Below are positions 1 to 51,322 of a DNA stretch of 52,629 nt, one piece after another; the stretch's first letter is position 1, and every line of letters starts with the position of its first letter. This DNA is from a virus. Where the stretch lies: the IMG/VR virus record IMGVR_UViG_3300009494_000004, positions 1 through 52,629 of that record; one strand, given 5' to 3'. The notes beneath the pieces were generated by a model. It was not told where the DNA came from. It searched no databases and saw only the letters and a list, made by a program, of their open reading frames with translations. A program made the translations under genes and the position numbers.

Positions 1-342
1 AATTACTTTGCGCAATAGATGACTTGTATTTCAAGTACCAAATACACCACCGCCTGCCCGAATACCCTGCTGACCGACTGAAGACCCGTGAAGGTCGTCC
101 CCTGGACCTCTAAGATCGTTCTTGCGCAGTAACGCCAAGAATAACCTTAAAGCGAGCAGGGAAGCCCGCTACAGCACGCTGGTTGCCGCTCCCCCTGAAC
201 ACCCCGCTGACCGGCTGGAGGCCTTCAGCGACCGGGGCGTCGCCTCATACTTTTCTCACACGCGTGCCGGGCGGGTGTTTAACAGTTGAACATGTTTGCC
301 CTCGTGTTTGCCTCATACTTTTCGCCCGATTTCGGTTAAAAG
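1..342. repeat. 342-bp unit X, terminal copy. Exact duplicate of 52288..52629, so either the assembly overlap of a circular/concatemeric genome or a true direct terminal repeat.
   Basis: The first 342 nt and last 342 nt of the window read identically. The same unit occurs again at 502..843. Confidence 0.9.
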
Positions 343-361
343 TACGAGAAAAGTATGAGGC
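310..361 (+). other. Hairpin with a perfect 14-bp stem (gcctcatacttttc / gaaaagtatgaggc) and a 24-nt loop that holds a mini-hairpin ccg-attt-cgg
   Basis: 310..323 is the exact reverse complement of 348..361. The 3' arm (346..361) is also a 16/16 complement of the motif copy at 242..257. Confidence 0.7.
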
Positions 362-390
362 AGAAATGCGCAATTGTTGAACAACGGCCA

Positions 391-498
391 GGGCGTCGCC
401 TCATACTTTTCTCACACGCGTGCCGGGCGGGTGTTTAACAGTTGAACATGTTTGCCCTCGTGTTTGCCTCATACTTTTCGCCCGATTTCGGTTAAAAG
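391..498. repeat. Extra copy of the 108-bp 3' sub-unit Xb (identical to 235..342 and 736..843)
   Basis: The verbatim string gggcgtcgcctcatactttt...cgcccgatttcggttaaaag appears three times inside 1..843 and once more in the terminal copy. Confidence 0.9.
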
Positions 499-501
499 AT
501 A

Positions 502-843
502 AATTACTTTGCGCAATAGATGACTTGTATTTCAAGTACCAAATACACCACCGCCTGCCCGAATACCCTGCTGACCGACTGAAGACCCGTGAAGGTCGTC
601 CCCTGGACCTCTAAGATCGTTCTTGCGCAGTAACGCCAAGAATAACCTTAAAGCGAGCAGGGAAGCCCGCTACAGCACGCTGGTTGCCGCTCCCCCTGAA
701 CACCCCGCTGACCGGCTGGAGGCCTTCAGCGACCGGGGCGTCGCCTCATACTTTTCTCACACGCGTGCCGGGCGGGTGTTTAACAGTTGAACATGTTTGC
801 CCTCGTGTTTGCCTCATACTTTTCGCCCGATTTCGGTTAAAAG
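502..843. repeat. Second full internal copy of the 342-bp unit X
   Basis: Reads identically to 1..342. It is separated from its neighbours by the trinucleotide ata (499..501 and 844..846). Confidence 0.9.
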
Positions 844-846
844 ATA

Positions 847-965
847 AATTACTTTGCGCAATAGATGACCTGTATTTCAAGTACCGTATACGCTGCCGCT
901 CACCGCTGGTTACCGAATACCCTGTCGACCGGCTGGAGGCCCGTGGAGGTCGTCCCCCGGCCCCC
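847..965. repeat. Degenerate partial copy of unit X
   Basis: The first 39 nt (aattactttgcgcaatagatgacctgtatttcaagtacc) differ from unit X at one base. Beyond that the copy diverges, mostly by transitions, but keeps the ccctg.cgaccggctggagg.c..gg.ggtcgtcccc sub-repeat. Confidence 0.7.
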
Positions 966-2351: not shown

Positions 2352-2657
2352 ATGGACAAACAACCTTGGGAAATGACAAAAAAAGAGTTTCAGCAAAGTC
2401 TTCAGGCAAGGCGCGAAAAGGCCATTGAGGAGTGGAACGCTGTTGGATCGAAGGGATTTCCGCCGGGGGTAAGAATAGGGACTGTAGGTGATCGAATAAG
2501 GCTGGCCGAAAGCGCCGGATACAAACTGCCTCGTGACGATGATTTGATAATGCGAATGGACATTCACAGACTTTATGTAGAAGCCGCTTACGCTACGGGC
2601 AAACTTATTCCGATCAACGTTCTGAAAGATTACCCTAAACTGACGTTAAATAAATAA
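2352..2657 (+). CDS. Hypothetical protein
   Basis: 101-aa ORF with the strong Shine-Dalgarno GAGGAGA. Its 3' end overlaps the convergent GT2 gene by 12 bp. Confidence 0.5.
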   Translation: MDKQPWEMTKKEFQQSLQARREKAIEEWNAVGSKGFPPGVRIGTVGDRIRLAESAGYKLPRDDDLIMRMDIHRLYVEAAYATGKLIPINVLKDYPKLTLNK

Positions 2658-3338
2658 CTTCGGTTCGCCGGTTCGCCCGTCCCAAGACCGTTGCCTGCCG
2701 CCCGTATGTTCAATTACCGAATCGGGGTGAACCGAAGCGTTCCGGTAGCCGCGTCGCAGCGCGTTCCTAAAGTAGCTTGTATCAACCGTTCGTATAAGCC
2801 GCCGTGTATCCCAATTCCCGTTTGCCTTAAATGCCGCTGCGGATATGAACACGCAACAGCCGGGCGGAAACCTGTAGACATTAATAGAAGTTGTTGGTCC
2901 AGTTTTAACGTCAAGTTGATGTTTCGGCCACGAAAGGCCGCTCAATCCACATAGCGGCTTCTTGTCCAGATGTTCGTGTTCTTTATAGGTAGTCAATAGT
3001 GTGTGCAACCAACCTGGTAGAAATCTGAGGTCACTATCGCAGAATAAGAAATAATCCGGTTTTCTAACGTCAAATTTGGCGCAACGTTCGGCAGCTATTC
3101 GCGCACCGAGATTCCAAGCGTACGGCTTCCCCATATTTTCGTTCAACAGGACAAGTCCAGCTATTACATTTTCGCGGTATTGCATCAAGACGTCTATAGT
3201 CTTTTGTCCGCTCCCGTTGTCGACGACTGTGACGTCAACGAGGTTGCGGTCTGTCGTCTCGGTTAGCGTTTTGAGCGTGCCTGCCAGTAGAGCGCTTCGC
3301 CCAAATGACGTCATAACGAGAGCTATTCGCTCACTCAT
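2646..3338 (-). CDS. Family-2 glycosyltransferase (GT-A fold)
   Basis: N-terminal VMTSFGR...VTVVDNGSGQKT, NENMGKPYAWNLG and a DxD-type FCDSDL motif are typical of GT2. Start is coupled to the endolysin stop (ATGAGTGA). Confidence 0.7.
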   Translation of the reverse strand: MSERIALVMTSFGRSALLAGTLKTLTETTDRNLVDVTVVDNGSGQKTIDVLMQYRENVIAGLVLLNENMGKPYAWNLGARIAAERCAKFDVRKPDYFLFCDSDLRFLPGWLHTLLTTYKEHEHLDKKPLCGLSGLSWPKHQLDVKTGPTTSINVYRFPPGCCVFISAAAFKANGNWDTRRLIRTVDTSYFRNALRRGYRNASVHPDSVIEHTGGRQRSWDGRTGEPKLFI

Positions 3339-27537: not shown

Positions 27538-28131
27538 TTATCCGCACCTTACGCCGTCGCATACGAAGATTGTTTTCTTTTCCTGCATGTCAAGCCGCTG
27601 GATATCGTGTATTTTAAGCACGTCCTTATAGTAAACTTTAATACTCTTTCTATCAGGGTAGATCCTCAGGTGCGATCTGCTGTCGAAGTTCGGCACTGAG
27701 AAAACGACGTGGACGCCGGGCGGCACGAAATCCAGGATGCGGAGGTCATCGAGGTGCTCGAACGTTTCCACTGCCACGATGGTATCGAACGGTAGGTGGA
27801 GCCACGTATTAGGGTCGTAAGCATCGCCGCACCATACGTCGTATAGCGTGAATAGACTATGTTTCTTTAACGCTACGGCGCTAAAATCGAACCCCTTGTA
27901 CCTATGGCCAGCTATCACCAGACGGCGTCCCAGCTCGCCGACGCCGCAGCCTACTTCGAGAATATCGGCCGGTTCAGGCAAAAACGCCAGTACAGCGTCG
28001 TATACGGGGTCGAAGCGCGCCGTATTGTAGATGCCGGTGCGGTAGGCGGTTTTATAGATGTCGTCGTAATACGCGGCTGTCTCCTCCTCGCGCTTTGTCG
28101 CGGTCACCTTTATTAATCCGTTATACTCCAT
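27538..28131 (-). CDS. Class I SAM-dependent methyltransferase
   Basis: Motif I ILEVGCGVGELG, followed by a motif-II-like GFDFS and VAVETFEHL. Confidence 0.7.
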   Translation of the reverse strand: MEYNGLIKVTATKREEETAAYYDDIYKTAYRTGIYNTARFDPVYDAVLAFLPEPADILEVGCGVGELGRRLVIAGHRYKGFDFSAVALKKHSLFTLYDVWCGDAYDPNTWLHLPFDTIVAVETFEHLDDLRILDFVPPGVHVVFSVPNFDSRSHLRIYPDRKSIKVYYKDVLKIHDIQRLDMQEKKTIFVCDGVRCG

Positions 28132-29355: not shown

Positions 29356-29777
29356 CCAGTGTCGCAATCGCAATTATCTTTGTTTTTGGCGTCGCGTTTA
29401 GCCTTGTCGTTCCAAGCGCAGCGGCAACAATATGTCGGACGACGGCATACAACGCAAAGTCCGTTGTTCATGCAAGGTGGTCGGTCCGCCAACGGTTTTT
29501 TACTACTTACATTATCAATAGAAGGCAAAGGCGGAATAACGCTGGGAATACGCGACTTCTTATTTCGCACGACTTGTTTGTCCCATTTGTTCAGCAACTC
29601 CGCGCTAATCGTAACCGCCCATTCGTCTTTTGCTACGTTAAAGACACCCAGCGACTTTACGGACTTCGCAAAATCAGCAAGAAACGATTTGCGGACCCGC
29701 TTTTTTGCCACAAACTCCCAAATAGTACCCGCAATAAAACCTATTACAACGCCGACAGCGAGTATAGTCAACATCAT
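29349..29777 (-). CDS. Membrane-anchored Cys-rich protein
   Basis: N-terminal transmembrane helix MMLTILAVGVVIGFIAGTIW and C-terminus PPCMNNGLCVVCRRPTYCCRCAW...NCDCDTGC. Start is ATGA-coupled. Confidence 0.55.
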   Translation of the reverse strand: MMLTILAVGVVIGFIAGTIWEFVAKKRVRKSFLADFAKSVKSLGVFNVAKDEWAVTISAELLNKWDKQVVRNKKSRIPSVIPPLPSIDNVSSKKPLADRPPCMNNGLCVVCRRPTYCCRCAWNDKAKRDAKNKDNCDCDTGC

Positions 29778-30307
29778 GACATCCCCCCGTCTTTACTGTC
29801 TTCGCCACCGCCGTCGCTGTCCTGATCGTCTTCGTCGCTGTTTGCTTCATTCAACAACTGCGCCTCTTCGACAAACGTATTACGCGAGCAATCGCAGTCC
29901 GCACCGCAACAAGCGTCGTATGTTGTTTTGCCTGATACAGTTTCACCAAACGATCGCAGTGATCCGCAATCGCTTTTTTTAATTTCATCATCCAAGGTCG
30001 GGTACGACGGTTTAATATCAATAACCGCAACAATATCGCATTCGCGCATAAGCAGCAGCGACTCGCCATTTATAGTAATTTCGCCGCCCGTGAAACGTCC
30101 GTATAGTACGGTGTCGCCTACCTTCACAATCATGTACTGAAGCTCGTTGCGCGGGGCGACACGCTTGCCGGGTCCACAGGTAACAACCATTCCCCGGCCC
30201 TTACCCTGCGGGTTAGGTAAAATGATTCCGTTGCCGGTCTCCGTTTCCGGCGCGTCCGGGCGAACGGCGATTCTGTCTTCAAGCAGTCGCGTAGTTTCGT
30301 TTTTCAT
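29774..30307 (-). CDS. GroES/Cpn10-like co-chaperonin with an ~80-aa Cys-rich, acidic C-terminal extension
   Basis: LEDRIAVRP...GIILP...GMVVTCGPGK...VKVGDTVLY...LLLMRECDIVAVI aligns along the whole of E. coli GroES. The ATG at 30307 has GGAGAGAG upstream. Confidence 0.75.
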   Translation of the reverse strand: MKNETTRLLEDRIAVRPDAPETETGNGIILPNPQGKGRGMVVTCGPGKRVAPRNELQYMIVKVGDTVLYGRFTGGEITINGESLLLMRECDIVAVIDIKPSYPTLDDEIKKSDCGSLRSFGETVSGKTTYDACCGADCDCSRNTFVEEAQLLNEANSDEDDQDSDGGGEDSKDGGMS

Positions 30308-30320
30308 TAATCTCTCTCCG

Positions 30321-30584
30321 TTAAAAGTTAAGCAACCTTGGTTGTTCGTCACGCTCCCAGGCGTCCACAAGGTGCTTCGTGACCGCTTTGCGCAACTGCG
30401 GACCGTTTAACCGGGTCAGCTTTTTGGCGGTCGCGCTTATATTAAGCTTCTGCGTCCAGTCCGCGTAGTTAATAATGCTTTGCCATACTGAGCCGGGGTA
30501 GTTGTCTGCCATTTGTCTAATCGAGGGCGCGTTCACTTTTTCTCCTTGCGTGCTGTCTAATACTATAACCCAGTTTTTGGTCAA
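30321..30584 (-). CDS. Hypothetical protein, first gene of the late operon
   Basis: 87-aa ORF with a TTG start preceded by AAGGAA at 5 nt. Confidence 0.5.
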   Translation of the reverse strand: MTKNWVIVLDSTQGEKVNAPSIRQMADNYPGSVWQSIINYADWTQKLNISATAKKLTRLNGPQLRKAVTKHLVDAWERDEQPRLLNF

Positions 30585-35510: not shown

Positions 35511-35809
35511 TGTCGTCTCCGTTTAATACGCCGCAACCCCGGCCACAATTTTACAAACGTGTAGTAAAGCAAAAGCGCCAGCCAAACCGCGTTTGCCACA
35601 ACAACGGCTACGCCGCCAATAAATGACAACCACTGTCCGAGATGCGGATAGTAAAACAGGTTCCAGCCGCCCCACGCGGTAAAGAACGCTACCGCAATCC
35701 AACTGACACCCTTAACCTGCCTGTCGATAAGCAATCGACGCACGTTCAGCATAACAAACAACGCGCCGCACGCCTCAAGTATTCCATTGATCGTATCAGG
35801 CCACGTCAT
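35507..35809 (-). CDS. 3-TM membrane protein with a SemiSWEET/PQ-loop-like layout (tentative)
   Basis: 100 aa with three hydrophobic helices. The pattern LN-VRRLL..R.VKGVS, W..NLFYY and VANAV parallels the PQ-..VLKTRS...IS, LW..YG and SNAV of bacterial SemiSWEETs as I recall them. Confidence 0.35.
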   Translation of the reverse strand: MTWPDTINGILEACGALFVMLNVRRLLIDRQVKGVSWIAVAFFTAWGGWNLFYYPHLGQWLSFIGGVAVVVANAVWLALLLYYTFVKLWPGLRRIKRRRH

Positions 35810-36669
35810 TTCGTTTGACTCTCCATCCGTATTCCGAATCCGAGTAGAAGCGCGACAAGTGTATCCTTAATAGTATTGTCTGGTTCGGAAAGGAACCGCG
35901 TCCCAGCGACAGCTTGTACATAGTTCCTTATTACCGATTCAGTTTCATCAATGAGATCCGCCGCCGCGCGCCTGACGAGATGCTCGTCCGCGGCGGCGAT
36001 ACATAAATCCCTCACGTCAGCACGCGGAATGGTAGCCTTTCGCAGTTTTTGCGCGGATTTAACAATCTCCGGATCAAGCGTCAATTCGACAAATCTGTCA
36101 TAAAATAGGTCGGCGGCTTCGTTATAGTCAAGTTTACGGAACGTAAATTCGTCTATAGCACCGTCATACGACATCGCCATGTTGAACTTCAGGTCATCTG
36201 ATGGATTTGCAGACATCAAATGCTTATATTCCGTGACATTCATTATCTGATCTGCCTTTGTAACATAAGGACTTCTTTTAATTGGCAGACCGAATGCCTC
36301 GGCGACAACCGGCTCCCATATCCGTTCCAGCGCTTTATAGGAATTGAGCAACGATTTTAACGGACGCGATACGTCGCCAAGGTACGCTTCCGCCGCGTCG
36401 TGCATAAGCGCTTCAAACTGCAACATCCTCTTCTGCTTGTCTGTCATAGCGGCCAACTCCTCCGGGGGGACCAGAGAAAGCACCAGGTTCGCGCACTCGA
36501 CGGAATGCTCGGCAACACTGTAAAAACCGTTCGTATAGCCGGTAAACCGGCACTGTGCACCCAGCGACTGCGCAATATCCCTTATGTCGATGATACCAAC
36601 ATGCGGCCTTAAAAGGTTAACGGATATCCCACTTCCCGTCGCAATAATCGGTTCGGTTGTTTGTTTCAT
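35806..36669 (-). CDS. HD-domain phosphohydrolase, YfbR-type 5'-deoxynucleotidase / dNTPase-like
   Basis: FYSVAEHS...LMHDAAEAYLGDVSRPLK reproduces the H...HD...D metal-ligand pattern of YfbR-like enzymes. The ATG at 36669 has AAGGAGAG upstream. Confidence 0.65.
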   Translation of the reverse strand: MKQTTEPIIATGSGISVNLLRPHVGIIDIRDIAQSLGAQCRFTGYTNGFYSVAEHSVECANLVLSLVPPEELAAMTDKQKRMLQFEALMHDAAEAYLGDVSRPLKSLLNSYKALERIWEPVVAEAFGLPIKRSPYVTKADQIMNVTEYKHLMSANPSDDLKFNMAMSYDGAIDEFTFRKLDYNEAADLFYDRFVELTLDPEIVKSAQKLRKATIPRADVRDLCIAAADEHLVRRAAADLIDETESVIRNYVQAVAGTRFLSEPDNTIKDTLVALLLGFGIRMESQTK

Positions 36670-36686
36670 GTTTCTCTCCTTAATAT

Positions 36687-37220
36687 TTACGGTATCCAAC
36701 CATGTTTTTTGTCGTATTTTTCCGCACCGCCACGTTTAAACGGAGCGTCCGCAGGGCGGTTATCAAACTCCGGTTTGATGTCTACGAAGTCGAGGAGGAA
36801 AAGCAGGCAGCAAATAGCGTGCGCGAGGTGGTGCAGTCCCGATTCCGGATCGTATTCTTCGCCACCGTACCAGGCCCAAATATGACGTAACGCCGCGCCA
36901 ACGTATCGAGACCATTTAAGGCCACACCGGTACGAATTTGCCTCATACTTTTTTGCACCGTACGTGAGGACAGCGACGACCTGCCGTAGTGGGCCGGGCA
37001 TTAGTAACTCGAACATCAGCTTTCCGTCGTCGTACTTCGGTGCCTCAAATTTAGATGTTGCCGTTTCCCCCGCCACTGTTGACGACATAACCCGTTTTAG
37101 TGGCGGTTGCCGTAAACTATTTTTAGGTTTGTCAAACAATGCTATAAGTTGCGCAACCGGACCGAGTTTGATTTTTCCAGGTTTGATTTTTTCAATTTTC
37201 TTTTTCTTCAACGGATTCAA
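36687..37220 (-). CDS. MazG-like all-alpha NTP pyrophosphohydrolase (DUF5664 / dATP-dGTP diphosphohydrolase-type domain)
   Basis: KYDDGKLMFELL...VLTYGAKKYE.NSY......SRYVGAALRHIWAWYGGEEYDPESGLHHLAHAICCLLFLLDF matches that phage domain. The start is uncertain (TTG at 37220 or 37211). Confidence 0.6.
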   Translation of the reverse strand: MNPLKKKKIEKIKPGKIKLGPVAQLIALFDKPKNSLRQPPLKRVMSSTVAGETATSKFEAPKYDDGKLMFELLMPGPLRQVVAVLTYGAKKYEANSYRCGLKWSRYVGAALRHIWAWYGGEEYDPESGLHHLAHAICCLLFLLDFVDIKPEFDNRPADAPFKRGGAEKYDKKHGWIP

Positions 37221-39264
37221 CTCCTTTTTCTACGGACGTGCAGCTGCTCCACGAGTCGCCCGCCTCGATATCGACCGCAAAGGGGACAAACCCTTCGACA
37301 TCAATTTCCATAGCGTCGCGTATCATCGGCACAAGTCTGTCGCGATACTTTTTCGGTGTATGAAATAACAGTTCGTCGTGGACCGTTAATAGCATTTCGA
37401 CCGGGAACTTCGCAGGGACAATGATTCTATCATAACATCGTTTTATTGCGATCTTCATAATATCGGCGGCGGTGCCCTGCACTTCCTGGCTGATGGCGCG
37501 GCGTTCCCATTTCGCGCGCTCACCGGGAACGTCCGACCAGATTCCAGTCATCCCGCCGTCGTTTTCGTTGCCAGTCAACGGACGAATGCGACCAAAGTAA
37601 GTCTTCGCCCATCCACGCTGAAACGCAAGGCGCTTCCTACGACCAAGCCACGCAGTAAGTGCGGGCACAGTTTCGAACCATTTATCGATAAATTTCTGCG
37701 CTTTGCTTTCACTAATGTTGTATAGAAGAGCAAACGCATACGCGGTTTGTCCAAAAAGTGCTCCAAAATTTTGGCCTTTCGCTTTTTTATACTCTTCTTC
37801 AGTATAGTCCGCGCCGAACATTTTGATAGCGGTCGCAACGTGCGGCGATTCACCTTTCGCAAATGCATCAATCCATACTTTTTCTTTCGCAAAACTCGCC
37901 GGTATTCTAAGTTCAATCTGCGAATAATCTGCATCGACAAATGTCCAATCCTCATCCGATATAAACGTTGCACGGATATTAACTGGTACGTAGTCACCAG
38001 CGCACTTTGGAATGTTTTGTAAATTCGGTCCCGAACATGAAAATCTACCTGTTGCCGGACCGACTGACCAAAACGACGCGCGTAGTTTTCCGTCGTCATC
38101 CATTGCCTTTGGTATCTTCGATGTGAAACTGGATCGCAGCGTGCCAAGGCTTGATCCGTTCAATAACATTTCAACTACTGAATGCTTATTTTTCAATGAA
38201 TTGATAAACTTCTTTCCAGTAGCGCCGTAACCTGACGCCGTGTACGCTACCGGCTCCAATAACCGCCCGTCGACATCAATAAGTGCTGTTTTCTTATCGT
38301 GCGAAAGCGTTTTTTTGTTCCAGTTACCGAAAAGCAAAACGGATTTCTGCATCCAGCTTTTGAGGTTAATTTCCGTCGGTTTGCCGTACCGCTCCTCGGA
38401 CGCTATCTCATTCACCCGTCCGTTGATGACTTCGTACGCCTGCCCAAGCACCTTGTCCTGATCGGCAAGCAAGTCCAAGTTTATCCGTACGCCCGCCTGC
38501 TCCATATGGATGACTGGACGCACGACCTCATGCTCAAGGTTCCATGTTCCGCGCTGTTTTTCTTTCGTCTCAGCCAGTTCGGGAAGAAGCCATAATCTCC
38601 AGGTGAAATCAGCGTCCTGACAGCCGTAAATACGTTGCATCTTATTGTTAAGTTTGAGGAAGTCGCCGGGCATAAACTTTGACTTCGGGACACCGATTAT
38701 CTTGCTCATCGACAGCGTCGACCCGACGCCGGTGAGGTGCTTTTCGGCGAAACCTTTTAACCCTCCCGTCATTTTGTTATTCGGCCACGTAAGGTGGACG
38801 CCGATGAACACATCCTGGAAATCGTGGACTTCAACTCCGTGGTTCTCCAAAATGGGGATATCGTATTTCGCGTTTGCCATGACGAGCGTACTTTTCTTTG
38901 CCTTTACGGCGAGCGCCCTTAAACATGCCTTTGAGGGCATTGGAACCCAATAGGCCTGTGCGGGTTCGCAGCATACCGAAAAGCCGTACAGCTCCGTCTT
39001 GCCGGGCCGTATATCGAGACCGCTTGTTTCCGTATCTACCGCAAACTCGTTACCAAATCCGTTAAGTACCTTCCGTAATTCGGTAGCCGTTTTAATTTCA
39101 ACGTACCGGCAACCTTTATCCATTGCTTCGGCGTATTGAACCTGAAGCCCGGCTTCTTTCTCCAGCTTCAGTTGCGTCTTGGTTGGCGGCTTGATCTTTT
39201 TTTCTTTTTTCCTTTTAATTTCAGGCACTGTACGCCTCCAATGCGGCTTCCGCAGCCTCGACAT
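37192..39264 (-). CDS. Family-A DNA polymerase with a 3'-5' exonuclease domain
   Basis: Exo I FAVDTETSGL, motif A DADYSQIELRI, motif B KGQNFGALFG and motif C TVHDELLFH. Confidence 0.85.
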   Translation of the reverse strand: MSRLRKPHWRRTVPEIKRKKEKKIKPPTKTQLKLEKEAGLQVQYAEAMDKGCRYVEIKTATELRKVLNGFGNEFAVDTETSGLDIRPGKTELYGFSVCCEPAQAYWVPMPSKACLRALAVKAKKSTLVMANAKYDIPILENHGVEVHDFQDVFIGVHLTWPNNKMTGGLKGFAEKHLTGVGSTLSMSKIIGVPKSKFMPGDFLKLNNKMQRIYGCQDADFTWRLWLLPELAETKEKQRGTWNLEHEVVRPVIHMEQAGVRINLDLLADQDKVLGQAYEVINGRVNEIASEERYGKPTEINLKSWMQKSVLLFGNWNKKTLSHDKKTALIDVDGRLLEPVAYTASGYGATGKKFINSLKNKHSVVEMLLNGSSLGTLRSSFTSKIPKAMDDDGKLRASFWSVGPATGRFSCSGPNLQNIPKCAGDYVPVNIRATFISDEDWTFVDADYSQIELRIPASFAKEKVWIDAFAKGESPHVATAIKMFGADYTEEEYKKAKGQNFGALFGQTAYAFALLYNISESKAQKFIDKWFETVPALTAWLGRRKRLAFQRGWAKTYFGRIRPLTGNENDGGMTGIWSDVPGERAKWERRAISQEVQGTAADIMKIAIKRCYDRIIVPAKFPVEMLLTVHDELLFHTPKKYRDRLVPMIRDAMEIDVEGFVPFAVDIEAGDSWSSCTSVEKGVESVEEKEN

Positions 39265-39988
39265 CGCGCTCGTATAGATGCAGATTAAGCGCGATATTCG
39301 TGAACCGTCCGCAGGGTCGGCTAAGCTCGTCGGCCATCGCCATCTGGAGTCCGTGCATCGTGAACACGTCGTTGCGAAGACCTGTATTTACATCCTGCGA
39401 GCGGAATACAACTGTCGCACATAAACCGCCATTCCTTATCGTAAACTGAAGGCAGATACAGCACGGAAAATCTTTCGTCGGAACCGCCTTGTGCTTGACC
39501 TGATTTACGTTCAACACGACCTGCCTGCTGTCCGAGTCTTTTCGTAGCTTGTCAACCGCCCATATCCATTGGTTTATATCTGTAACGTAGTAGCCCGTGT
39601 CGCCCTCGTGCTTCGACGGCACCGTCATATCGAATCGCTGACTGAATAAATACTGTCCGTACGCACTATTGACACGTATACCGTCGTCGGAAAATTGCTC
39701 CCAAAGCTTTGTAAAACTTTTTCTCGTCACCGGATGTACAAGGTCGGCAATTCTGTCAGATCCGCTCAAGTACCAAGCAAGTTCGGCCTCAGCGTACGGC
39801 ACCCTCGTGTGAAACGGCTTTAACGTTGACACAAAATGCTTGTCCTGATAACCGTTTATATAATCAAGCGTAAGAATGTAATTGTTTACCTCACGCACGG
39901 CCAAACTACGCGGCGCGGACTTCTGCCCAGCCAATGTCGCCCTAATGGCATCATAATACTCTTTATTGAAATCTGTAAATAGCGACAT
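39221..39988 (-). CDS. Thymidylate-synthase-fold enzyme with the dCMP-hydroxymethylase-type active-site signature (deoxycytidylate C5-modifying enzyme)
   Basis: It aligns with E. coli ThyA across ELAWYLSG, NSAYGQ, DSDSRQVV, FPCCICLQF and FRSQDVNTGLRND. The residue 31 positions after the nucleophilic Cys is Asp (RND, as in T4 gp42 D179), not the Asn of dUMP-specific enzymes. The ATG at 39988 has AGGAGAG upstream. Confidence 0.65.
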   Translation of the reverse strand: MSLFTDFNKEYYDAIRATLAGQKSAPRSLAVREVNNYILTLDYINGYQDKHFVSTLKPFHTRVPYAEAELAWYLSGSDRIADLVHPVTRKSFTKLWEQFSDDGIRVNSAYGQYLFSQRFDMTVPSKHEGDTGYYVTDINQWIWAVDKLRKDSDSRQVVLNVNQVKHKAVPTKDFPCCICLQFTIRNGGLCATVVFRSQDVNTGLRNDVFTMHGLQMAMADELSRPCGRFTNIALNLHLYERDVEAAEAALEAYSA

Positions 39989-40814: not shown

Positions 40815-41107
40815 ATCTTAACCCTCATTACTTTGACTTTTTTCTGGACGTACGACAGCGCCTCTACGGTATTCCGTATTGTGTAGAAACCCGTACGCCA
40901 CGCGATTACGATAGGCTTACCGTACCGGGTGCGGTCCGACGCTGCCCATGCGTCAAAATGGTCTTTGAATTTTTTCGTCGTTTCGTCTTCAGTGGGGGCA
41001 TTGACCATAACCGCATTCAACTGCGCAACCATCATCCTCTTAAACGAGGTAAGGTCCATAAAATCCCCAAGCGAAAATCTGTATTTTGTTTTTTGTTTCT
41101 TACTCAT
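40811..41107 (-). CDS. Hypothetical protein
   Basis: The ATG at 41107 overlaps the upstream stop (ATGAGTAA). The track start is 41137. Confidence 0.45.
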   Translation of the reverse strand: MSKKQKTKYRFSLGDFMDLTSFKRMMVAQLNAVMVNAPTEDETTKKFKDHFDAWAASDRTRYGKPIVIAWRTGFYTIRNTVEALSYVQKKVKVMRVKI

Positions 41108-42098
41108 TGTTTTGTGTCCACATTCCGTAGCCTGCATGGTTCGGACTGATTATCCTCGGCAACGTGCCGGATTCCTGTATGGCCCGCATAACCTGCCAAT
41201 ACTCTATGACGCGCTGCTCCAGCGTATGGTAGCGTAGCACATTCTGCTGTCCGCACGCCGCCATCTCCTCGCGAATATCATCATGCTCTAAGTAGAAATC
41301 TATTTTACGCACCAGGTCGTCAAACGTGTCATCGTGCGTAACACAATGCGTGCCCTTCTCCCACATATAGTCGAAATTCTGCACCTTGTGGTTGATAAAC
41401 GCCACGCCGGAACCCATCGCGTTATACGTACGATTACTGACGACAAACGGACCGGGATTCAGAAATAGGCTGCGCTGTATATTGAACGCCACTTTGCTTT
41501 GAGCATAGGCCTCGGCCATATTCCATTCACGAATCTCGCCGGGTCGCCCTATTTTGTCGAGGACGAATTTGCATTTGTACCGACGGCTAAGTTCATTAAG
41601 CCATTTTCTTCTAATCTTATCGGTCGATCCTATGAAGCACAAGTCGTAGATTTCCTTCGACAAATCAAGCCGCGTCGGCAGCGCGCCGTCTTTCATGCAG
41701 GAACGGTGATCGAAGTATTGAGGCATCCACAGCACGGTCGGCGCGAGGTCGCAGTACCGGCGAGCCGTCTCAAGTATGGAGAACACGAGCACGTCGGCCC
41801 GGTTCGCAAGCTGACGACGCCACATCCTGTCGCGCGTCCGCTCCGTCATGTCGGGATACCAGAACAGAAGCTTCGCACCGCTTTTTCGTATTTGGCGGTA
41901 GTAGCGCCGGAAGTCCGGACGTAGCGCAAAGCAGAACACCCAATCGGGCTTATACGACTCAAGCACGGGTAGCATCTCCTCTGGATGCGCGCGCGACCCG
42001 GTCAACATAACGTCGAATCCCTGACGTTTCGCTTCCTTGTACAAATACGGACCGGCGAACCGCTTCTGAAATCCGCACGCCCAAACGAGAACCTTCAT
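41100..42098 (-). CDS. Glycosyltransferase, CgeB/GT1-like (GT-B fold)
   Basis: [10 protein letters not shown]..., LCFIGS..., VAFNIQR....[16 protein letters not shown] resemble the DUF3880/Glyco_trans_1_2 (CgeB) family. ATGA-coupled start at 42098. Confidence 0.55.
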
Positions 42099-42343
42099 AC
42101 GGATACTCCATGACATTTTTTGTACTTAAGACCGGAATCGCACGGACACGAATCGTTCCTGCCAATCTTATAATAGGGACGCCGATAGGTTCCACGTACG
42201 GATGAATCCCAGAACGTCATACACTTACGCCCGTATTTGTCCCTCTTGTCCGGTTTCCGCTTTTTGGGTTGCGCGGTTACGCTTTCACGCTTACGCAGAA
42301 AACTAAATAGCCACGCAATTATTTTCGCAAAAATCTTCATCAT
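42095..42343 (-). CDS. Small protein with an N-terminal hydrophobic helix and a C-terminal SEC-C zinc motif
   Basis: [17 protein letters not shown] is a SEC-C motif. ATGATGA coupling to the upstream gene. Confidence 0.55.
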
Positions 42344-43179
42344 AGACTGTCCTTTAGCATGCGTTTCGCCTCGTTGACTATGACCGACGAATCCGGCAAC
42401 CACATTTTCTTTTGTCTCCAGTGCGCATCGCCTGGACTTTGCATTGTCTTGACGCGCGTATTAAACGGATTCCAATGACTTTGAACCCGTAGACTGTGGT
42501 CGCGGCACGTTTGCCAACACAACTGTGGAAGCCCGCACAGTGTCGCCAGGTGTGCTGGTCCCGACTGCGGACTAATGATGAGTTTCGACGACGCCATTAA
42601 ATCCGTTAATGCGGTAAGGTTAATATCTCGGCAATCCGTGCCCCCTACGTGCAAAGACGACTCAGATTTTCCAATACATACGACGCTGTATCCGGCGCGC
42701 ATAAGCGATTCTGAAACTATCTTTGCATGCTTTTTCGGCCAATTCCTAAATCCGGTGCTGCATTTGTCGGTATCGCGAACATGGAGCAAAACATCCGGTA
42801 CAAGGCAACCGTCGACCTTTTTGCCCAACCGAATAAGCGACTGCCGCGTAGACCAATACTGTGAATCCCACCACCGCTGCGGATACGCATCCGGTTTTAT
42901 CCATTCCGCGTTTGGCGCAAAATCCTCAATGTAAAAGCGAAAATTCGTGATTTTCTGTCTATCGACAGATCGGTCGTAACACATATCAGTTTGGTTGTCG
43001 CCTTCGCCGAAATGTAATATGTCGTCGGCAAAGTCCGTATATAGTGCATCGTGTCCAGCCCGACACGCGACGACGACTCGGTCGTACTTCGGCGCAATTT
43101 TCCTGAGAAACCCCTGCCAACAAAACAGTTCCCAACCGAGCTCGCCTATGAATGGTCCGGCAAAAAGTGTCTTCATCAT
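42340..43179 (-). CDS. Glycosyltransferase, GT9 (heptosyltransferase)-like GT-B fold
   Basis: N-terminal [12 protein letters not shown] and C-terminal [19 protein letters not shown] resemble GT9 enzymes. AAGGAAA Shine-Dalgarno. Confidence 0.5.
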
Positions 43180-46654: not shown

Positions 46655-47926
46655 CTATACTTCCTCACGTAGCCATTCAAGACGAGAAAAATCTTGTATA
46701 ATCATGTTATCGTTGTCATAAATAACGCGAGATATTTTCGCATCAAAGGGACACGCAGCCCGTGTAAGCGCCGCCGCGACGGCCCGGATAAGATCCTCTG
46801 ACGTGTTTACTGGAACGTTCTGCGTAACGTGCGCGGGTTTCGCACCTTTGTCGTAACTGAGTTTGAAATCGTCCGGCAGACCCATAAAATCCATACACTC
46901 CCGCACGGACATAAATCTCGACTTGGTCGGATGCTTCCACCACCTCATCCCGTGGATCATCAGGGTTGGCGTGAGATCGCGCACAAGCACCGGAGTCTCC
47001 CGGCGAAAACCAAGACCCTGGTCCGTCTTTGCCTTGACCTTAATTACGATGTCGTTCCACTGTTTCGCGTTCGCCCGGTACTCGTCACCGCCCCTGACAC
47101 GCGGACGGACCGACTCGGCGGCAAGCCACGCAATCAGCTCCGAAAGTAAACCCTGCTTGACGGCTAACGAAATAACGTAACTTTTGGCGTTTGGCTCTCC
47201 CCCAATACTAACATTTTTCGAATCTATCCAGCCCTTGCGACGCGCATAACGAATCAAGGAGTCATTGGCGTAATTACTATTAAGAAACTCCTCGTCGTGC
47301 GGTCGCGTACCGAATACTTTACCGCATCTTTCGAGAAACTCCGAAACTGCCAACGGCCTTCCCCTTGTCTCCAGGGCGATAATCCTGGGCGTACCCTTCC
47401 ACAAAAGGCCGTACGTACGCCTTCGCTTCTGCGGTATCCCGTGGTTCGCCGTATTGACCTTTACCATAGTGAGTGAGTAGCCCAGGCTTTTTGCAAGCTC
47501 GGCAACACGCTTCGCCATCGGACGCCCCTTGTCCGTCGCCAGCAGGGGCGCGTTTTCAAATACGTGTACACCCGGACTGAAAGCCGTTATGGCGTAGCGA
47601 ATTGTCCGCGTAATCCAGTCGTTCGTTGGACAGTCGCAGCCTTTCGTTGGTGAATTATTCCCCATCGACAGACCGCCACACGGCGGAACGGAATGCGTGA
47701 TATCTATACGAGAGAATTTATCCGTGTTCGTTACGAAATACGGAACCTTTGGCCAGTAGCTCCTGAGACTTGACGAGTGCGCGCCGCCGAATACATTTCC
47801 GGCCCCGTCAAGCATATCAACAATGACCTCCGGCAGTCGGCCGATTGCGCGCGCCGCGCCAATGGCGAGTCCACCCGTGAGCGGCATGATGGCTGCATGC
47901 GTTAAATTTGTTTTCCGTCTCAGCAT
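46655..47926 (-). CDS. Divergent DNA cytosine-C5 methyltransferase-fold protein
   Basis: Motif IV-like PPCGGLS (canonical PCQ), motif VI FENAPLL (ENV), motif VIII QKRRRTYGL, and C-terminal RECMDFMGLPDDF and QNVPV (canonical GNAVP). Confidence 0.6.
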   Translation of the reverse strand: MLRRKTNLTHAAIMPLTGGLAIGAARAIGRLPEVIVDMLDGAGNVFGGAHSSSLRSYWPKVPYFVTNTDKFSRIDITHSVPPCGGLSMGNNSPTKGCDCPTNDWITRTIRYAITAFSPGVHVFENAPLLATDKGRPMAKRVAELAKSLGYSLTMVKVNTANHGIPQKRRRTYGLLWKGTPRIIALETRGRPLAVSEFLERCGKVFGTRPHDEEFLNSNYANDSLIRYARRKGWIDSKNVSIGGEPNAKSYVISLAVKQGLLSELIAWLAAESVRPRVRGGDEYRANAKQWNDIVIKVKAKTDQGLGFRRETPVLVRDLTPTLMIHGMRWWKHPTKSRFMSVRECMDFMGLPDDFKLSYDKGAKPAHVTQNVPVNTSEDLIRAVAAALTRAACPFDAKISRVIYDNDNMIIQDFSRLEWLREEV

Positions 47927-48993
47927 AATTTTCTCCTTCGTAAAATTGTTCTGACTATTTTTGGTATTTGAACGGACATATCGTTTTCCGCAAAGTAATT
48001 CGACATTGCTTTTTGGTATGCGATCACAGTAGAGACCCTCGAAACCGTTCTCCGTATCCTATCGATATCGCCTAAGCCGGTTATTAATAGGGACTTGAAC
48101 TCGTCCGGAACAAGATATTCGAGTCGGTTATCAATCAGAGGAAGCACGCCGGATGACACAGTTTGAACGAGCTTGTTGCAAGTAGCTCGGCAATTAACCA
48201 CCTTCTTATTCATTGTGCAAAGCTGCCCCCAGCGGTTCGGCAACATATCCAGCAGAGTTTTTTGCGGTACTTGTCCGTGAAAATGGACGTCCGGTAACCC
48301 GGCCTTTTGCTTATTCGTCCATCTGCCGTACACGTCTATATCCCCGAACCGTGACAGGAACTCGGTCTTCTCCCCTTTCCTGGAGTTCCCAAAATACACC
48401 GCACGCTTACCCGGTAACGGTCTCCTTATCGGAACGGAGGCGCCACTCCAGTAAACCGCGTCAATGTCAGCGTAGAAAAAATTGTCCACAGGAAGGGGGA
48501 TATTGCGGCATCCGTTCCATTCGGTCGCGAGTCTGTCGGCGTCTCTCCCGAAGTGGAGAACAAACACCCTGTTCGGGTCCAGCCTTTCTATCCCCCACTT
48601 TCTGTAGACGTCCGTTCGATTCGGGCGGTATAGAAACAGGTCACGCAGCGAAGCTGTGAAATCCGTGAAGTAGTAAATAACCGGAAGATTGGATTTCTGG
48701 ATTGTCAGATATTTTACAAGTTCTCTACGGGTAAGCGAATTACTTTCCCAAACGAGATTCGGGTTGTCGTAAAATTTCATATTCCATTCGAAATCGAACG
48801 GTATAGACTGAAACAGCAGTATTGCGTCCGCCTCGTCGATATCGTCGACGAAGTCACATCCGCTTTTGTCGCGTATCCCGCGCCAGGTCAACCATACGCC
48901 GGTTCCGCACCGTTCGAATCTTTTTTTGGTCGCCGTCGAGCTATCGACGGCGCGGTTGAAATTCATCGGGTACAACTTCGGACGTCTTCTCAC
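47920..48993 (-). CDS. T4 DNA beta-glucosyltransferase-like protein (tentative)
   Basis: VIYYFTDF (T4 bGT IYYLFTD, holding the catalytic Asp), AVYFGNSRKGEKTEFLSRF (T4 VIYGGSFRSGQRESKMVEFL) and FHGQVPQKT (T4 FTGKIPMNM) occur in the same order and at similar spacing in a protein of similar length (357 vs 351 aa). The T4 sequence is recalled from memory. Confidence 0.45.
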   Translation of the reverse strand: MRRRPKLYPMNFNRAVDSSTATKKRFERCGTGVWLTWRGIRDKSGCDFVDDIDEADAILLFQSIPFDFEWNMKFYDNPNLVWESNSLTRRELVKYLTIQKSNLPVIYYFTDFTASLRDLFLYRPNRTDVYRKWGIERLDPNRVFVLHFGRDADRLATEWNGCRNIPLPVDNFFYADIDAVYWSGASVPIRRPLPGKRAVYFGNSRKGEKTEFLSRFGDIDVYGRWTNKQKAGLPDVHFHGQVPQKTLLDMLPNRWGQLCTMNKKVVNCRATCNKLVQTVSSGVLPLIDNRLEYLVPDEFKSLLITGLGDIDRIRRTVSRVSTVIAYQKAMSNYFAENDMSVQIPKIVRTILRRRKLC

Positions 48994-49000
48994 TTCACGC

Positions 49001-50305
49001 CTATCTTCCCATAAGCTTATTCAAATAACGGTCCACGTTTACCTGAAGCCGCGCAAGCGGGCCGCGCGTGGCGTTCCAAACGAACGCCATCGTCCCGCGC
49101 TTCTGCCAATTAAAGGACTTCAGCCGATGCCATTCGTTCGGCGCAGTTATTCCCGGCAGATACTCGACAGACACGCCTTGCTCTTCCATTGTGGACGGCT
49201 TGCTGGAGCCTTTACGGTGCTGGTCACCGAGGTGCCATTCGCGGTATCCGTTCTTCGTCCGCGCCCACGCCTCCGGCATTTCGTTCGCCATAAGCGCCGC
49301 GAGCCGTATTGGCGCGACGCTGTGCCCGTGCTCGTACCCTATGAGATTGCATCCGTATTCATGAAATTTGTACGGCGACGACGTTGCGTCCACCGTCACC
49401 TCCGGGTCGTTCTTGTAGTACGCCTGAAGCACACGGCCAAGCATGAACGACGTCGTCCGGTCGTGGTTTCCAGGAATGAAATAAAGACGAACCGGCGCAA
49501 TCTCGCGCACTCTGTCGACAATCTGTATAGCGAGCGCTTCGCCGGTCACGAACGTGTTGTAGTATGCGTCCGCCTCCGGCTGCCCGGTGTGCTGCGTAGT
49601 TTCCTGCCATATCGTGTCGGAGTGGAAGAAATCGTTTCCCATTGGCATCACAATTTCTTCAAATGGCCCGAACGAAGCGGCGAGGCTGATTATTTCCTCC
49701 AACGACTCCATGACCATCTGCGCACAAAACTCCGGCGACCATTCAGCGTCGGACGCGGGCTTGAACGTTCGCATCCCATAGTGCGGATCCATAAGCGCGA
49801 TCTCGAGCGCGTTACGTTCATTCTTCTGCCCTAACTTCAGCCGTCTGATTTTCGGTTTCGGCGACTTACTCTCCAGTTGCATAAGCAGCTTACCGACGGC
49901 GTCCTCGACGACCTCCGGCACGGCGCGCTCAAACACTACTTTAAGTCGAACATTCTGAACTGTAAACGGCTTGTCCTTTTTTTCCGGTTCGCGAATCTTC
50001 ATCGTCACGTCGTAACTGGAATGCTCAAAACTTTTAACGCGCCACACCGCCATATCGACATTCAGTTCACATATAATATCGTCAATAGTTGCGAACCTGC
50101 ATCCGTCGGCTTCGACAACCCACTGACCACTTTTCTTTTGCTGCTTAAAGACGTTTTTCTGAATTTCGGTTTTGTCGTCCAAACGGTCAAACCTCCTCTT
50201 ATAAACATTTTCAGATATACCGAGGCTCCGCGACGCGGCGGCTTTATTACCAAATTTTACGTACGCTTCACGTATTTGTTTGTCGGTAGCTTTTAGTTTT
50301 GCCAT
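49001..50305 (-). CDS. Calcineurin-like metallophosphoesterase with an N-terminal HTH-like region
   Basis: LMDPHYG (DxH), MGNDFFHSD, IPGNHDR (GNHD/E) and GYEHGH. N-terminal AASRSLGISENVYKRRFDRL. Confidence 0.6.
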   Translation of the reverse strand: MAKLKATDKQIREAYVKFGNKAAASRSLGISENVYKRRFDRLDDKTEIQKNVFKQQKKSGQWVVEADGCRFATIDDIICELNVDMAVWRVKSFEHSSYDVTMKIREPEKKDKPFTVQNVRLKVVFERAVPEVVEDAVGKLLMQLESKSPKPKIRRLKLGQKNERNALEIALMDPHYGMRTFKPASDAEWSPEFCAQMVMESLEEIISLAASFGPFEEIVMPMGNDFFHSDTIWQETTQHTGQPEADAYYNTFVTGEALAIQIVDRVREIAPVRLYFIPGNHDRTTSFMLGRVLQAYYKNDPEVTVDATSSPYKFHEYGCNLIGYEHGHSVAPIRLAALMANEMPEAWARTKNGYREWHLGDQHRKGSSKPSTMEEQGVSVEYLPGITAPNEWHRLKSFNWQKRGTMAFVWNATRGPLARLQVNVDRYLNKLMGR

Positions 50306-50652
50306 TAGCGTTTCCTAATTCCAAATGTTTTGTTGAATTGTTTTTTCATCCTAATAAGTTTTGATGAACTCTGCGCGGATATGAACCGTCCGCGAAGAAA
50401 TACATTTAACTTCCGTGCGATAGTAACAGGATTCAAAGTTTCATATTTCCAAATAACGCAAACGCGCCAACCCGTGTTTTCTAATTTTTCAACTGTATTA
50501 TTACGTATACGCAAAAAACAGCTATACATAAATATAACTGCTTTCCATTTTCGCAATACGATATTTGGTTTACCCGGTAGTCCACAGCCACCAAGACGGA
50601 AACGAAAACCCATGCGATGAAGAAGTGAACGGACAATAACTTCTGACTTCAT
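50305..50652 (-). CDS. Degenerate Vsr/DUF559-like protein (catalytic and zinc residues missing)
   Basis: E.IVRSLLHRMGFRFRL....LPGKPNIVL...KAVIF parallels Vsr E..L.SLL...G..FR....LPG.PDFV.....VIF, but the catalytic Asp is Asn and the GCFWH.H.C segment is replaced or shortened. The gene is AT-rich (~36% GC). Confidence 0.4.
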   Translation of the reverse strand: MKSEVIVRSLLHRMGFRFRLGGCGLPGKPNIVLRKWKAVIFMYSCFLRIRNNTVEKLENTGWRVCVIWKYETLNPVTIARKLNVFLRGRFISAQSSSKLIRMKKQFNKTFGIRKR

Positions 50653-50653
50653 A

Positions 50654-51322
50654 TTAACTTCTGACTTCGATGGCGTAGACGTCCACCTCGATATCACCAT
50701 GCAGGCCAATATGGTCAAAGAACCGCCTAATGACGCCTGTTACGGACTTCTTAAGTTTCGCGTTCCCATACACGGTCGTCATGGGCATTGTCCCCTGCAA
50801 CGTCATCCCTTGCAACGTTACGACGTATTTGGCGCTGATGCGCCGTCGTTCCTTGTAATCAATAGCGTTCGATTTACCGAATTTTTGGCAGGCAACCGCC
50901 GAATATTTCTCCTCTTTGTCGAGAACGGCCAAACGTCCAGCGTCCGTCACAGGCGCGACGTCCGTCACGGTCATCTTGCTACCAGCAGCGTCGACGGACG
51001 CGCGACATACGGCTGCGACGTATTTGTTGATCTGTAAAAACACGCTCTTCGATATCTGCGTAGGTCCGCCCCTTACCTCAATAACCGCCTCCCGAACGGC
51101 GGACTCGCGCACCAGCCCTGTCGGGACATTTGTGCTTTTGACCTTCAGGTGGAACTTCGTCACCCTCTTCTCGTTGCCGTCCGTCAAGCACATTGTTTCA
51201 ATCGTTTCGTAAAGATGTCGCCGCAGGGCGTCGAGGAACTTTGCCGATACGCGGACGTCGTTCGTTTTCCGCAGCACGCGCATGAAGGATTTCACGGGCC
51301 GTTCGAACAAAAGGTTCTTCAC
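50654..51322 (-). CDS. Hypothetical protein
   Basis: The GTG at 51322 overlaps the HNH gene's TGA (GTGA), with AGGA 5 nt upstream. The track start is the TTG at 51352. Confidence 0.45.
   Translation of the reverse strand: MKNLLFERPVKSFMRVLRKTNDVRVSAKFLDALRRHLYETIETMCLTDGNEKRVTKFHLKVKSTNVPTGLVRESAVREAVIEVRGGPTQISKSVFLQINKYVAAVCRASVDAAGSKMTVTDVAPVTDAGRLAVLDKEEKYSAVACQKFGKSNAIDYKERRRISAKYVVTLQGMTLQGTMPMTTVYGNAKLKKSVTGVIRRFFDHIGLHGDIEVDVYAIEVRS

Follow-up and report, generated by a model that had tools for sequence, protein, structure and literature searches.

The window examined here is the whole contig of the IMG/VR virus record IMGVR_UViG_3300009494_000004, a stretch of 52,629 nucleotides (nt; ~52.6 kb) on which nearly all genes lie on the minus strand. 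Our subject is a gene for a glycosyltransferase (hereafter GT) that resembles the beta-glucosyltransferase (bGT) of phage T4, together with a C5-cytosine methyltransferase homologue (C5-MT) that adjoins it and a thymidylate synthase (TS) homologue.

47920..48993, minus strand: bGT-like glycosyltransferase of the GT-B type, 357 amino acid residues (aa), GTG start
46655..47926, minus strand: C5-cytosine DNA methyltransferase family protein, 423 aa; 7-nt overlap between its start and the stop of the GT gene
39221..39988, minus strand: thymidylate synthase homologue with the signature of a gp42-type dCMP hydroxymethylase, 255 aa from ATG

An earlier note on this DNA, made from the sequence alone, had described the GT gene as a counterpart of T4 bGT of nearly the same length. 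Its coordinates and start agree exactly with the open reading frame (ORF) 47920..48993 on the minus strand, and the lengths are indeed close (357 aa in GT, 351 aa in T4 bGT). The protein database version of GT (P0001) has 348 aa and begins at an internal ATG. We prefer the GTG start because the homologues P0002-P0004 open with the identical MRRRPKLYPMNF and because beta-strand 1 of the structural model comprises residues 6-10; all residue numbers of GT given below follow the 357-aa numbering. The ORF is real and, as judged from sequence and model, encodes a remote homologue of T4 bGT.

The resemblance between the two proteins exceeds chance only at the level of profiles and fold, not in pairwise comparison. 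GT and T4 bGT are about 15-23% identical, and a pairwise BLASTP alignment was not significant (E 0.81, 23% identity over 272 aa). As a single sequence GT had no match in Pfam (E<=1), PHROGs, NCBIfam or the PDB sequences, and it did not reach the gathering score of PF09198 (27 bits). Only four close homologues were present among 5.8 billion clustered proteins. The resulting shallow profile of five sequences found nothing in the PDB, and its comparison with T4 bGT alone (hhalign) gave an E of 0.028.

Three independent lines of evidence extend beyond this. A HMMER pass over 1.84 billion representatives retrieved 25 proteins at E<=1e-3, among them P0006 at 5.5e-110 and ten further matches, here called intermediates, with E values of 1e-31 to 1e-16 that span query residues ~80-350. 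PF09198 (T4-Gluco-transf) was matched by six intermediates; P0013 (36 bits) and P0011 (28.7 bits) were above its gathering cut-off. A profile built from 15 sequences of the window clade and the intermediates with T4 left out (A5) had 1BGT as its sole significant match in the PDB (E 8.6e-18, residues 1-288), and a wider profile (A2) matched T4 bGT at 6.4e-23. Lastly, six window-clade sequences (A8) were compared by hhalign with six bona fide bGTs (A7), those of T4, Acinetobacter AB1I1M-1, Serratia PS2, CC31, VPE25 and ATCCB, with no intermediates on either side; the two profiles aligned collinearly over 271 columns (E 3e-6, 88% probability).

The fold concurs with these results. An AlphaFold2 model of GT calculated from the 15-sequence alignment reached a mean predicted local distance difference test score (pLDDT) of 86 and a predicted template modelling score (pTM) of 0.86, and showed a compact two-domain GT-B architecture nearest to bGT structures. 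In a Foldseek search of the PDB, ranks 1-5 were all T4 bGT (E 2e-10 to 1.4e-8, template modelling (TM) scores 0.61-0.70), and the next families (Gtf3/GtfC, SenB, CalG3) had TM scores of 0.52 or less. Profile searches, the comparison of profiles with one another and the confident model all name T4 bGT as the protein nearest to GT among those known. Together with the modelled fold, the three lines (intermediates, profile search of the PDB and profile-profile comparison) establish homology of GT to T4 bGT at the level of sequence profile and model, though GT stands outside the curated Pfam family. Within these bounds, GT is a GT-B glycosyltransferase sharing a common ancestor with T4 bGT, and its failure to reach the PF09198 threshold places it in a sister subfamily outside the curated family.

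All three sequence blocks singled out in the earlier note were recovered, collinear with the T4 blocks in the MAFFT, HMMER and hhalign alignments: VIYYFTD of GT aligns with KIYYLFTD of T4, AVYFGNSRKGEK with VIYGGSFRSGQR, and FHGQVP with FTGKIP. The residues of T4 bGT that line the active site correspond to those of GT as follows.

T4 D100: D111 in GT, invariant in 17 sequences
T4 R191: R205 in GT, invariant in 17 sequences
T4 Y186 and G188: Y200 and G202 in GT, conserved
T4 R195: K209 in GT, substituted
T4 R269: K274 in GT, substituted
T4 E272: Q277 in GT, substituted

Asp100 of T4 bGT, changed to alanine in the mutant entry 1NZD, is the catalytic base, and R191, R195, R269 and E272 contact the phosphates and the ribose of UDP. 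These four residues are invariant in the six bona fide bGTs. The Lys and Gln that the earlier note had read at the R269 and E272 positions are correct, and the latter position is occupied by varied residues in the intermediates. By analogy, D111 is the candidate catalytic base of GT and R205, K209 and K274 are candidate phosphate contacts, with Q277 in place of the ribose-binding Glu. On the acceptor side, the E22 region and N70 of T4 bGT are unalignable or substituted in GT (N70 to F), and after its second strand the N-domain carries an insert of ~17 aa. Because of E272Q, the N70 to F change and the N-domain insert, recognition of the donor or of the DNA may differ from that in T4; altered donor or acceptor specificity, which the earlier note had also considered, is plausible.

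The TS homologue matches PF00303 with 71.7 bits, far under the NCBIfam cut-offs for thymidylate synthase equivalogs. It has C146, L143D, a retained D169 and N177D, and is the same as T4 gp42 at all four positions. In viral TS homologues (E. coli ThyA numbering) N177D is diagnostic for dCMP instead of dUMP as substrate, L143D/E for transfer of a hydroxymethyl instead of a methyl group and D169N for 5-hydroxy-dCMP synthases, all three positions being experimentally grounded (PMC13326640). The combination L143D/D169/N177D also occurs in the bGT-adjacent TS homologues of VPE25 and ATCCB, in those beside the bGT-like intermediates of contigs L008 and L017, and in the TS homologue of the related contig L015. 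The protein is hence a predicted source of 5-hydroxymethyl-dCMP (5hm-dCMP) and, because of its gp42 signature, the acceptor base of GT is predicted to be 5-hydroxymethylcytosine (5hmC) made before replication. Other chemistries were considered and rejected: that of 5-hydroxycytosine (5hoC, RB69-type) since D169 is kept, that of 5-hydroxymethyluracil or base J since N177 is Asp, and a TET/5mYOX route since no TET/JBP (5mYOX) or 2-oxoglutarate oxygenase domain was present in the ORFs scanned with Pfam, those of the structural block having been scanned with PHROGs only.

The C5-MT homologue scores 62.9 bits against PF00145 (cut-off 22). All members of its clade have the same motifs IV (PPC), VI (ENA), VIII (QKRRR) and X (QNVP). 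Motif I is atypical, with an invariant N-terminal PLxGGxxxG as opposed to the canonical S-adenosylmethionine-binding motif FxGxG, and the Pfam and TIGR matches begin at model position ~55. Pairing of GT with a C5-MT recurs in L015 (C5-MT 82% identical), in the distant contig L004 (C5-MT 43%, GT 38% identical) and in the related contig L003, where a divergent C5-MT follows GT (33% identity over 171 aligned residues) and is cut by the contig end at 235 aa. In contig L007, GT occurs with no C5-MT within the 1.9 kb available downstream. N6/N4 methyltransferases lie beside GT in L004 and L007.

Relatives of the C5-MT were also seen elsewhere. On the metagenomic contig L016 (552..2719) one directly follows a protein with PF18723, the 5-HMUDK helical domain, and in cyanophage S-TIM54 (L005, 4126..8215) another lies two genes from a ThyA homologue with Asp at N177 and Cys at L143. 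These two cases, the second of the S-TIM5 type of cyanophages, hint that the C5-MT clade travels with genes of pyrimidine C5 modification.

Further genes of the module and its surroundings are the following.

50305..50718, minus strand: decayed vsr-like gene, upstream of the exonuclease
49001..50305, minus strand: exonuclease (phrog_704), Mre11/SbcD-like metallophosphatase, directly upstream of GT; synteny kept in L003 and L015
42340..43179, minus strand: 279-aa protein that weakly matches GT9 (heptosyltransferase family), possibly a third glycosyltransferase
41100..42116, minus strand: second glycosyltransferase, 338 aa, Pfam Glyco_trans_1_2, kept in L015
36687..37220, minus strand: protein with PF18909 (dATP/dGTP diphosphohydrolase N-terminal)
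35806..36699, minus strand: homologue of HD-domain, YfbR-like dNMP phosphatases (phrog_318), in the nucleotide-metabolism block

GT belongs to the replication and nucleotide module, and the order vsr, exonuclease, GT, C5-MT and then glycosyltransferase, RecU, TS and PolA is conserved in L015 and L003. Both contigs come from one JGI sample, 3300042089, their GTs are 86% (L015) and 79% (L003) identical to that of the window, and overall nucleotide identity is ~75-80%. In the window, two glycosyltransferases, RecU, the TS homologue, PolA, the PF18909 protein and the HD protein are all encoded on the same strand about 5-9 kb downstream of GT. The 338-aa glycosyltransferase is a candidate for glycan extension; an origin as a paralogue of GT was unsupported (hhalign E 0.13). 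The GT9 match of the 279-aa protein has an E of 8.1e-5 and 22.5 bits, just above the cut-off of 22. Neither of these two glycosyltransferases had a tblastn match in phages. The 265-aa and 296-aa neighbours were tried as HMUDK-like proteins and showed no similarity. A fourth glycosyltransferase, of the GT2 family (2646..3338, minus strand; PF00535, 2.9e-12), lies beside the endolysin and holin genes and is kept in L003 and L015; it could serve in host-envelope modification or be a member of the DNA glycan pathway.

The PF18909 protein is only a candidate for editing of the nucleotide pool, and no similarity to the T4 gp56-like dCTPase was found. For the HD/YfbR-like protein a link to DNA modification is presumed from its location only. 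Both directly follow PolA (35806..39264, minus strand, in the order PolA, PF18909 protein, HD/YfbR-like phosphatase). This trio resembles dpoZ/mazZ/datZ of the 2-aminoadenine (Z-genome) phages; a Z-genome cluster was rejected, as no PurZ-like ORF was seen. The vsr-like gene has an in-frame deletion of ~27 aa that removes the FWHxH catalytic block and lacks the N-terminus relative to the intact 164-aa Vsr of L015; its Pfam match covers residues 22-68 only.

Among the intermediates, the bGT-like genes adjoin dUTPase/DCD, TS homologue or nucleotide-kinase-like genes. A cassette in L008 (9142..13646) comprises, in order, dUTPase/DCD, the bGT-like gene, an unknown protein of ~310 aa, RGP (UDP-arabinopyranose mutase family) and a TS homologue with the hydroxymethylase signature, and L017 (389..3667) has the same order minus the RGP gene. 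Both look like further systems of 5hmC glycosylation, possibly with a pentose or furanose donor. In three distant bGT-like proteins (P0010, P0012 and P0016) Trp stands at Gly positions that are invariant in the family, e.g. IWNWRWWAR against IGNxRxGxR and YWxW against YGxW. This pattern suggests that TGA codes for Gly in the source genomes and has been translated as Trp.

The window as a whole is the genome of a siphovirus-like tailed phage that has no close cultured relative and is not T-even. Its structural and lysis genes encode the large terminase, portal, a protease-major-head fusion, tape-measure-like and minor tail proteins, endolysin and holin, and further genes a primase-helicase, PolA, a RecU-like resolvase, an endonuclease-VII-like protein and an HNH endonuclease. 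Among 50,697 phage records, nothing exceeds 31% identity to PolA, and neither megablast with 7 kb of window sequence nor tblastn with GT found a match. GT was likewise not found by tblastn to or from cultured phages. Pattern scans of IMG/VR, GTDB genomes and JGI metagenomes did not turn up a relative, and no host is therefore assigned. The claim of the earlier note that such a protein occurs outside the T-even lineage is borne out by the terminase, portal, protease-head fusion, tape measure and PolA of this phage, but it is not new, as bGT homologues are known in VPE25/VFW and ATCCB.

Some features of the contig are separate from the module. The opening 342 nt recur unchanged at the other end of the contig (52288..52629), which indicates a terminal repeat or the overlap of a circular assembly. 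Positions 1..300 are repeated exactly at 502..801, and a further repeat family of ~173 nt extends over 226..899. A Cpn10/GroES co-chaperonin homologue with an extended C-terminus (29774..30370, minus strand; PF00166, 5.6e-16; phrog_3188) and a class-I S-adenosylmethionine-dependent methyltransferase adjoining the large terminase gene (27538..28131, minus strand; Methyltransf_23, 7.1e-12) are also encoded.

With T4 bGT (gene b-gt, CAZy GT63, PF09198, 1BGT/1QKJ/1J39) GT shares the two-Rossmann GT-B fold, a near-identical length, the putative catalytic Asp and the R191 equivalent in a collinear alignment over ~270-290 residues; like T4, the phage also encodes a gp42-type dCMP hydroxymethylase. 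Unlike the 169 kb myovirus T4, the phage is siphovirus-like with ~52 kb, and its GT is accompanied by a C5-MT homologue and two further glycosyltransferases of other families. Genes of the bGT family with adjoining TS homologues are also present in other tailed phages that are not T4-like, namely the Enterococcus siphophages VPE25/VFW and Lactobacillus phage ATCCB. The VPE25/VFW homologues have ~40% identity to T4 bGT, and the DNA of VPE25 is reported to be modified at cytosines (PMC4999554). In contrast to GT, which is far more divergent, the bGTs of VPE25, VFW and ATCCB share 31-42% of their residues with T4 bGT, R195, R269 and E272 among them.

A metavirome mining study reports thousands of viral contigs that encode GT-B DNA glycosyltransferases of a bGT-like architecture, with ThyS as a preferred partner (in about 28% of the mined contigs), and cluster products with mono- to tri-saccharides of hexose, N-acetylhexosamine or heptose on 5hmC (Pyle et al., bioRxiv 10.1101/2023.12.21.572611). 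Like the clusters described there, the window combines a GT-B enzyme of bGT-like architecture and a putative catalytic Asp with secondary glycosyltransferases and a TS homologue. Unlike them, it joins a ThyS-type hydroxymethylase with a C5-MT and has no 5mYOX, a combination undescribed in the passages of the study that were consulted. Modification of dCMP by a TS homologue before replication, followed by the building of a DNA glycan by several GT-B enzymes, is also a feature of RB69/DLP3 (arabinosyl-5hoC) and RL38J1 (galactosyl/glucosyl-5hoC) (PMC13326640). In contrast to the window, in which D169 is kept, the TS homologues of these phages carry D169N and make 5-hydroxy-dCMP; their glycosyltransferases resemble BshA/MshA/PimA and not bGT, and the NDP-arabinose or mutase genes are absent from the window.

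We propose, with a probability of roughly 0.7, that GT is a bGT-descended GT-B enzyme that acts on phage DNA and glycosylates 5hmC in the base-proximal position. In this pathway the TS homologue would turn dCMP into 5hm-dCMP, which after phosphorylation would be incorporated by PolA, so that the DNA carries 5hmC. GT would then bind the duplex between its two Rossmann domains and flip out the 5hmC. By analogy with T4 bGT, Asp111 (Asp100 in T4) may deprotonate the hydroxymethyl group for attack on C1 of the nucleotide sugar, possibly a UDP-hexose, which R205, K209 and K274 would hold; transfer would proceed with inversion, presumably in beta linkage. As in T2/T6 and the metavirome clusters, the glycosyltransferases 41100..42116 and 42340..43179 may lengthen the glycan. 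DNA modified in this way would withstand restriction enzymes and perhaps CRISPR nucleases as well.

Several observations weigh against this proposal. The kinship with T4 bGT is seen neither in the pairwise BLASTP comparison nor in single-sequence searches, and the PF09198 threshold is not reached; R195, R269 and E272 are all substituted; and the E22 region, N70 and the insert set the N-domain apart. No P-loop candidate for a dNMP kinase was present among the unassigned ORFs of the window, and neither a recognisable dCTPase nor a nucleotide-sugar synthesis gene was found in it; the sugar donor presumably comes from the host pool. Any of the three glycosyltransferases could be the one that contacts the base. 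Finally, the intact-looking, conserved C5-MT is hard to reconcile with full replacement of cytosine by 5hmC, since complete replacement by glycosyl-5hmC would leave no C5-MT substrate in the phage DNA. Cytosine could be replaced only in part, C5-MT could act on host DNA or on early DNA, the two genes could merely be co-located in an anti-restriction island, or the pair could be functionally coupled.

Given three glycosyltransferase-like genes in one module, GT could add a second or third sugar onto one that another glycosyltransferase has set on 5hmC, for which the beta-glucosyl-HMC-alpha-glucosyltransferase (HMC, hydroxymethylcytosine) of T2/T6 is an analogue. The remodelled acceptor side of the N-domain (N70 to F, insert) would suit such a role, and di- and tri-saccharide DNA modifications made by several phage glycosyltransferases are documented. 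However, T4 bGT, the one relative that has been characterised, glycosylates 5hmC directly, the catalytic Asp does not vary, and in L017, L008 and L019 the bGT-like gene is the glycosyltransferase nearest to the TS or kinase genes; we therefore regard a non-base-proximal role as rather unlikely. The 7-nt overlap with the C5-MT gene, the recurrence of the pair even in the distant L004 and the invariant catalytic motifs of the methyltransferase bring to mind the known MT/5mYOX/GT clusters, and hence a post-replicative route in which C5-MT would mark specific cytosines that are subsequently hydroxylated and GT would glycosylate these sites only. Such a route is improbable in view of the lack of a TET/JBP (5mYOX) domain in the scanned ORFs of the replication module, the GT of L007 with no C5-MT in the available downstream sequence, and the conserved gp42-type hydroxymethylase, which would already supply 5hmC.

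A different use of the same translationally coupled and repeatedly conserved pair is that GT and the PLxGG methyltransferase-fold protein form a functional unit, in which the latter creates or edits a C5 substituent on DNA or targets GT to particular sequences. The substituent might arise by C5 hydroxymethylation at the DNA level, by another non-methyl transfer or by methylation of cytosines that escape replacement by 5hmC. The relatives of C5-MT beside the 5-HMUDK-like protein of L016 and near the N177D ThyA homologue of S-TIM5-type cyanophages are hints in this direction. We consider this doubtful, and to our knowledge a pathway that unites pre-replicative (TS-type) and DNA-level (methyltransferase-fold) cytosine chemistry is undescribed. 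If GT instead glycosylated a cell-envelope polymer, a small molecule, a phage protein or another non-DNA acceptor, its likeness to bGT would come down to a shared small GT-B scaffold. The next-best folds are indeed those of protein or small-molecule glycosyltransferases (Gtf3, GtfC, SenB), P0011 has a weak Gtf3_C match and no TS nearby, the window also holds the GT2 protein beside its lysis genes, and about 65% of the mined phage glycosyltransferase contigs have no base-modification neighbour. We hold this reading to be very unlikely, as sequence-profile searches and fold searches alike put T4 bGT clearly first, and the gene is flanked by an exonuclease and a DNA methyltransferase and belongs to an operon-like array that also contains PolA and an enzyme of the dCMP hydroxymethylase type.

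T4 bGT, the founding DNA glycosyltransferase, is in standard use for labelling 5hmC in epigenomics. The occurrence of bGT homologues beyond the T-even phages and of clusters of GT-B and ThyS genes is already published, and the system of the window is an expected further case of an anti-restriction strategy that is already known. The new element is a rare and highly divergent subfamily of the bGT lineage that lies under the thresholds of the curated models, comes from a previously unsampled phage group and combines altered nucleotide-binding residues with a conserved C5-MT partner. The bGT lineage thus reaches further into small phages that are not T4-like than annotation suggests, the subfamily, of which there are only about six close members among 5.8 billion proteins, being missed by the Pfam, PHROG and NCBIfam models, and its members are candidates for enzymes that prefer other sugar donors or other sequences. 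Given the two or three further glycosyltransferases and the gp42-type hydroxymethylase, hypermodification of cytosine with several sugars is probable in this phage and would be relevant to the evasion of restriction enzymes and CRISPR.

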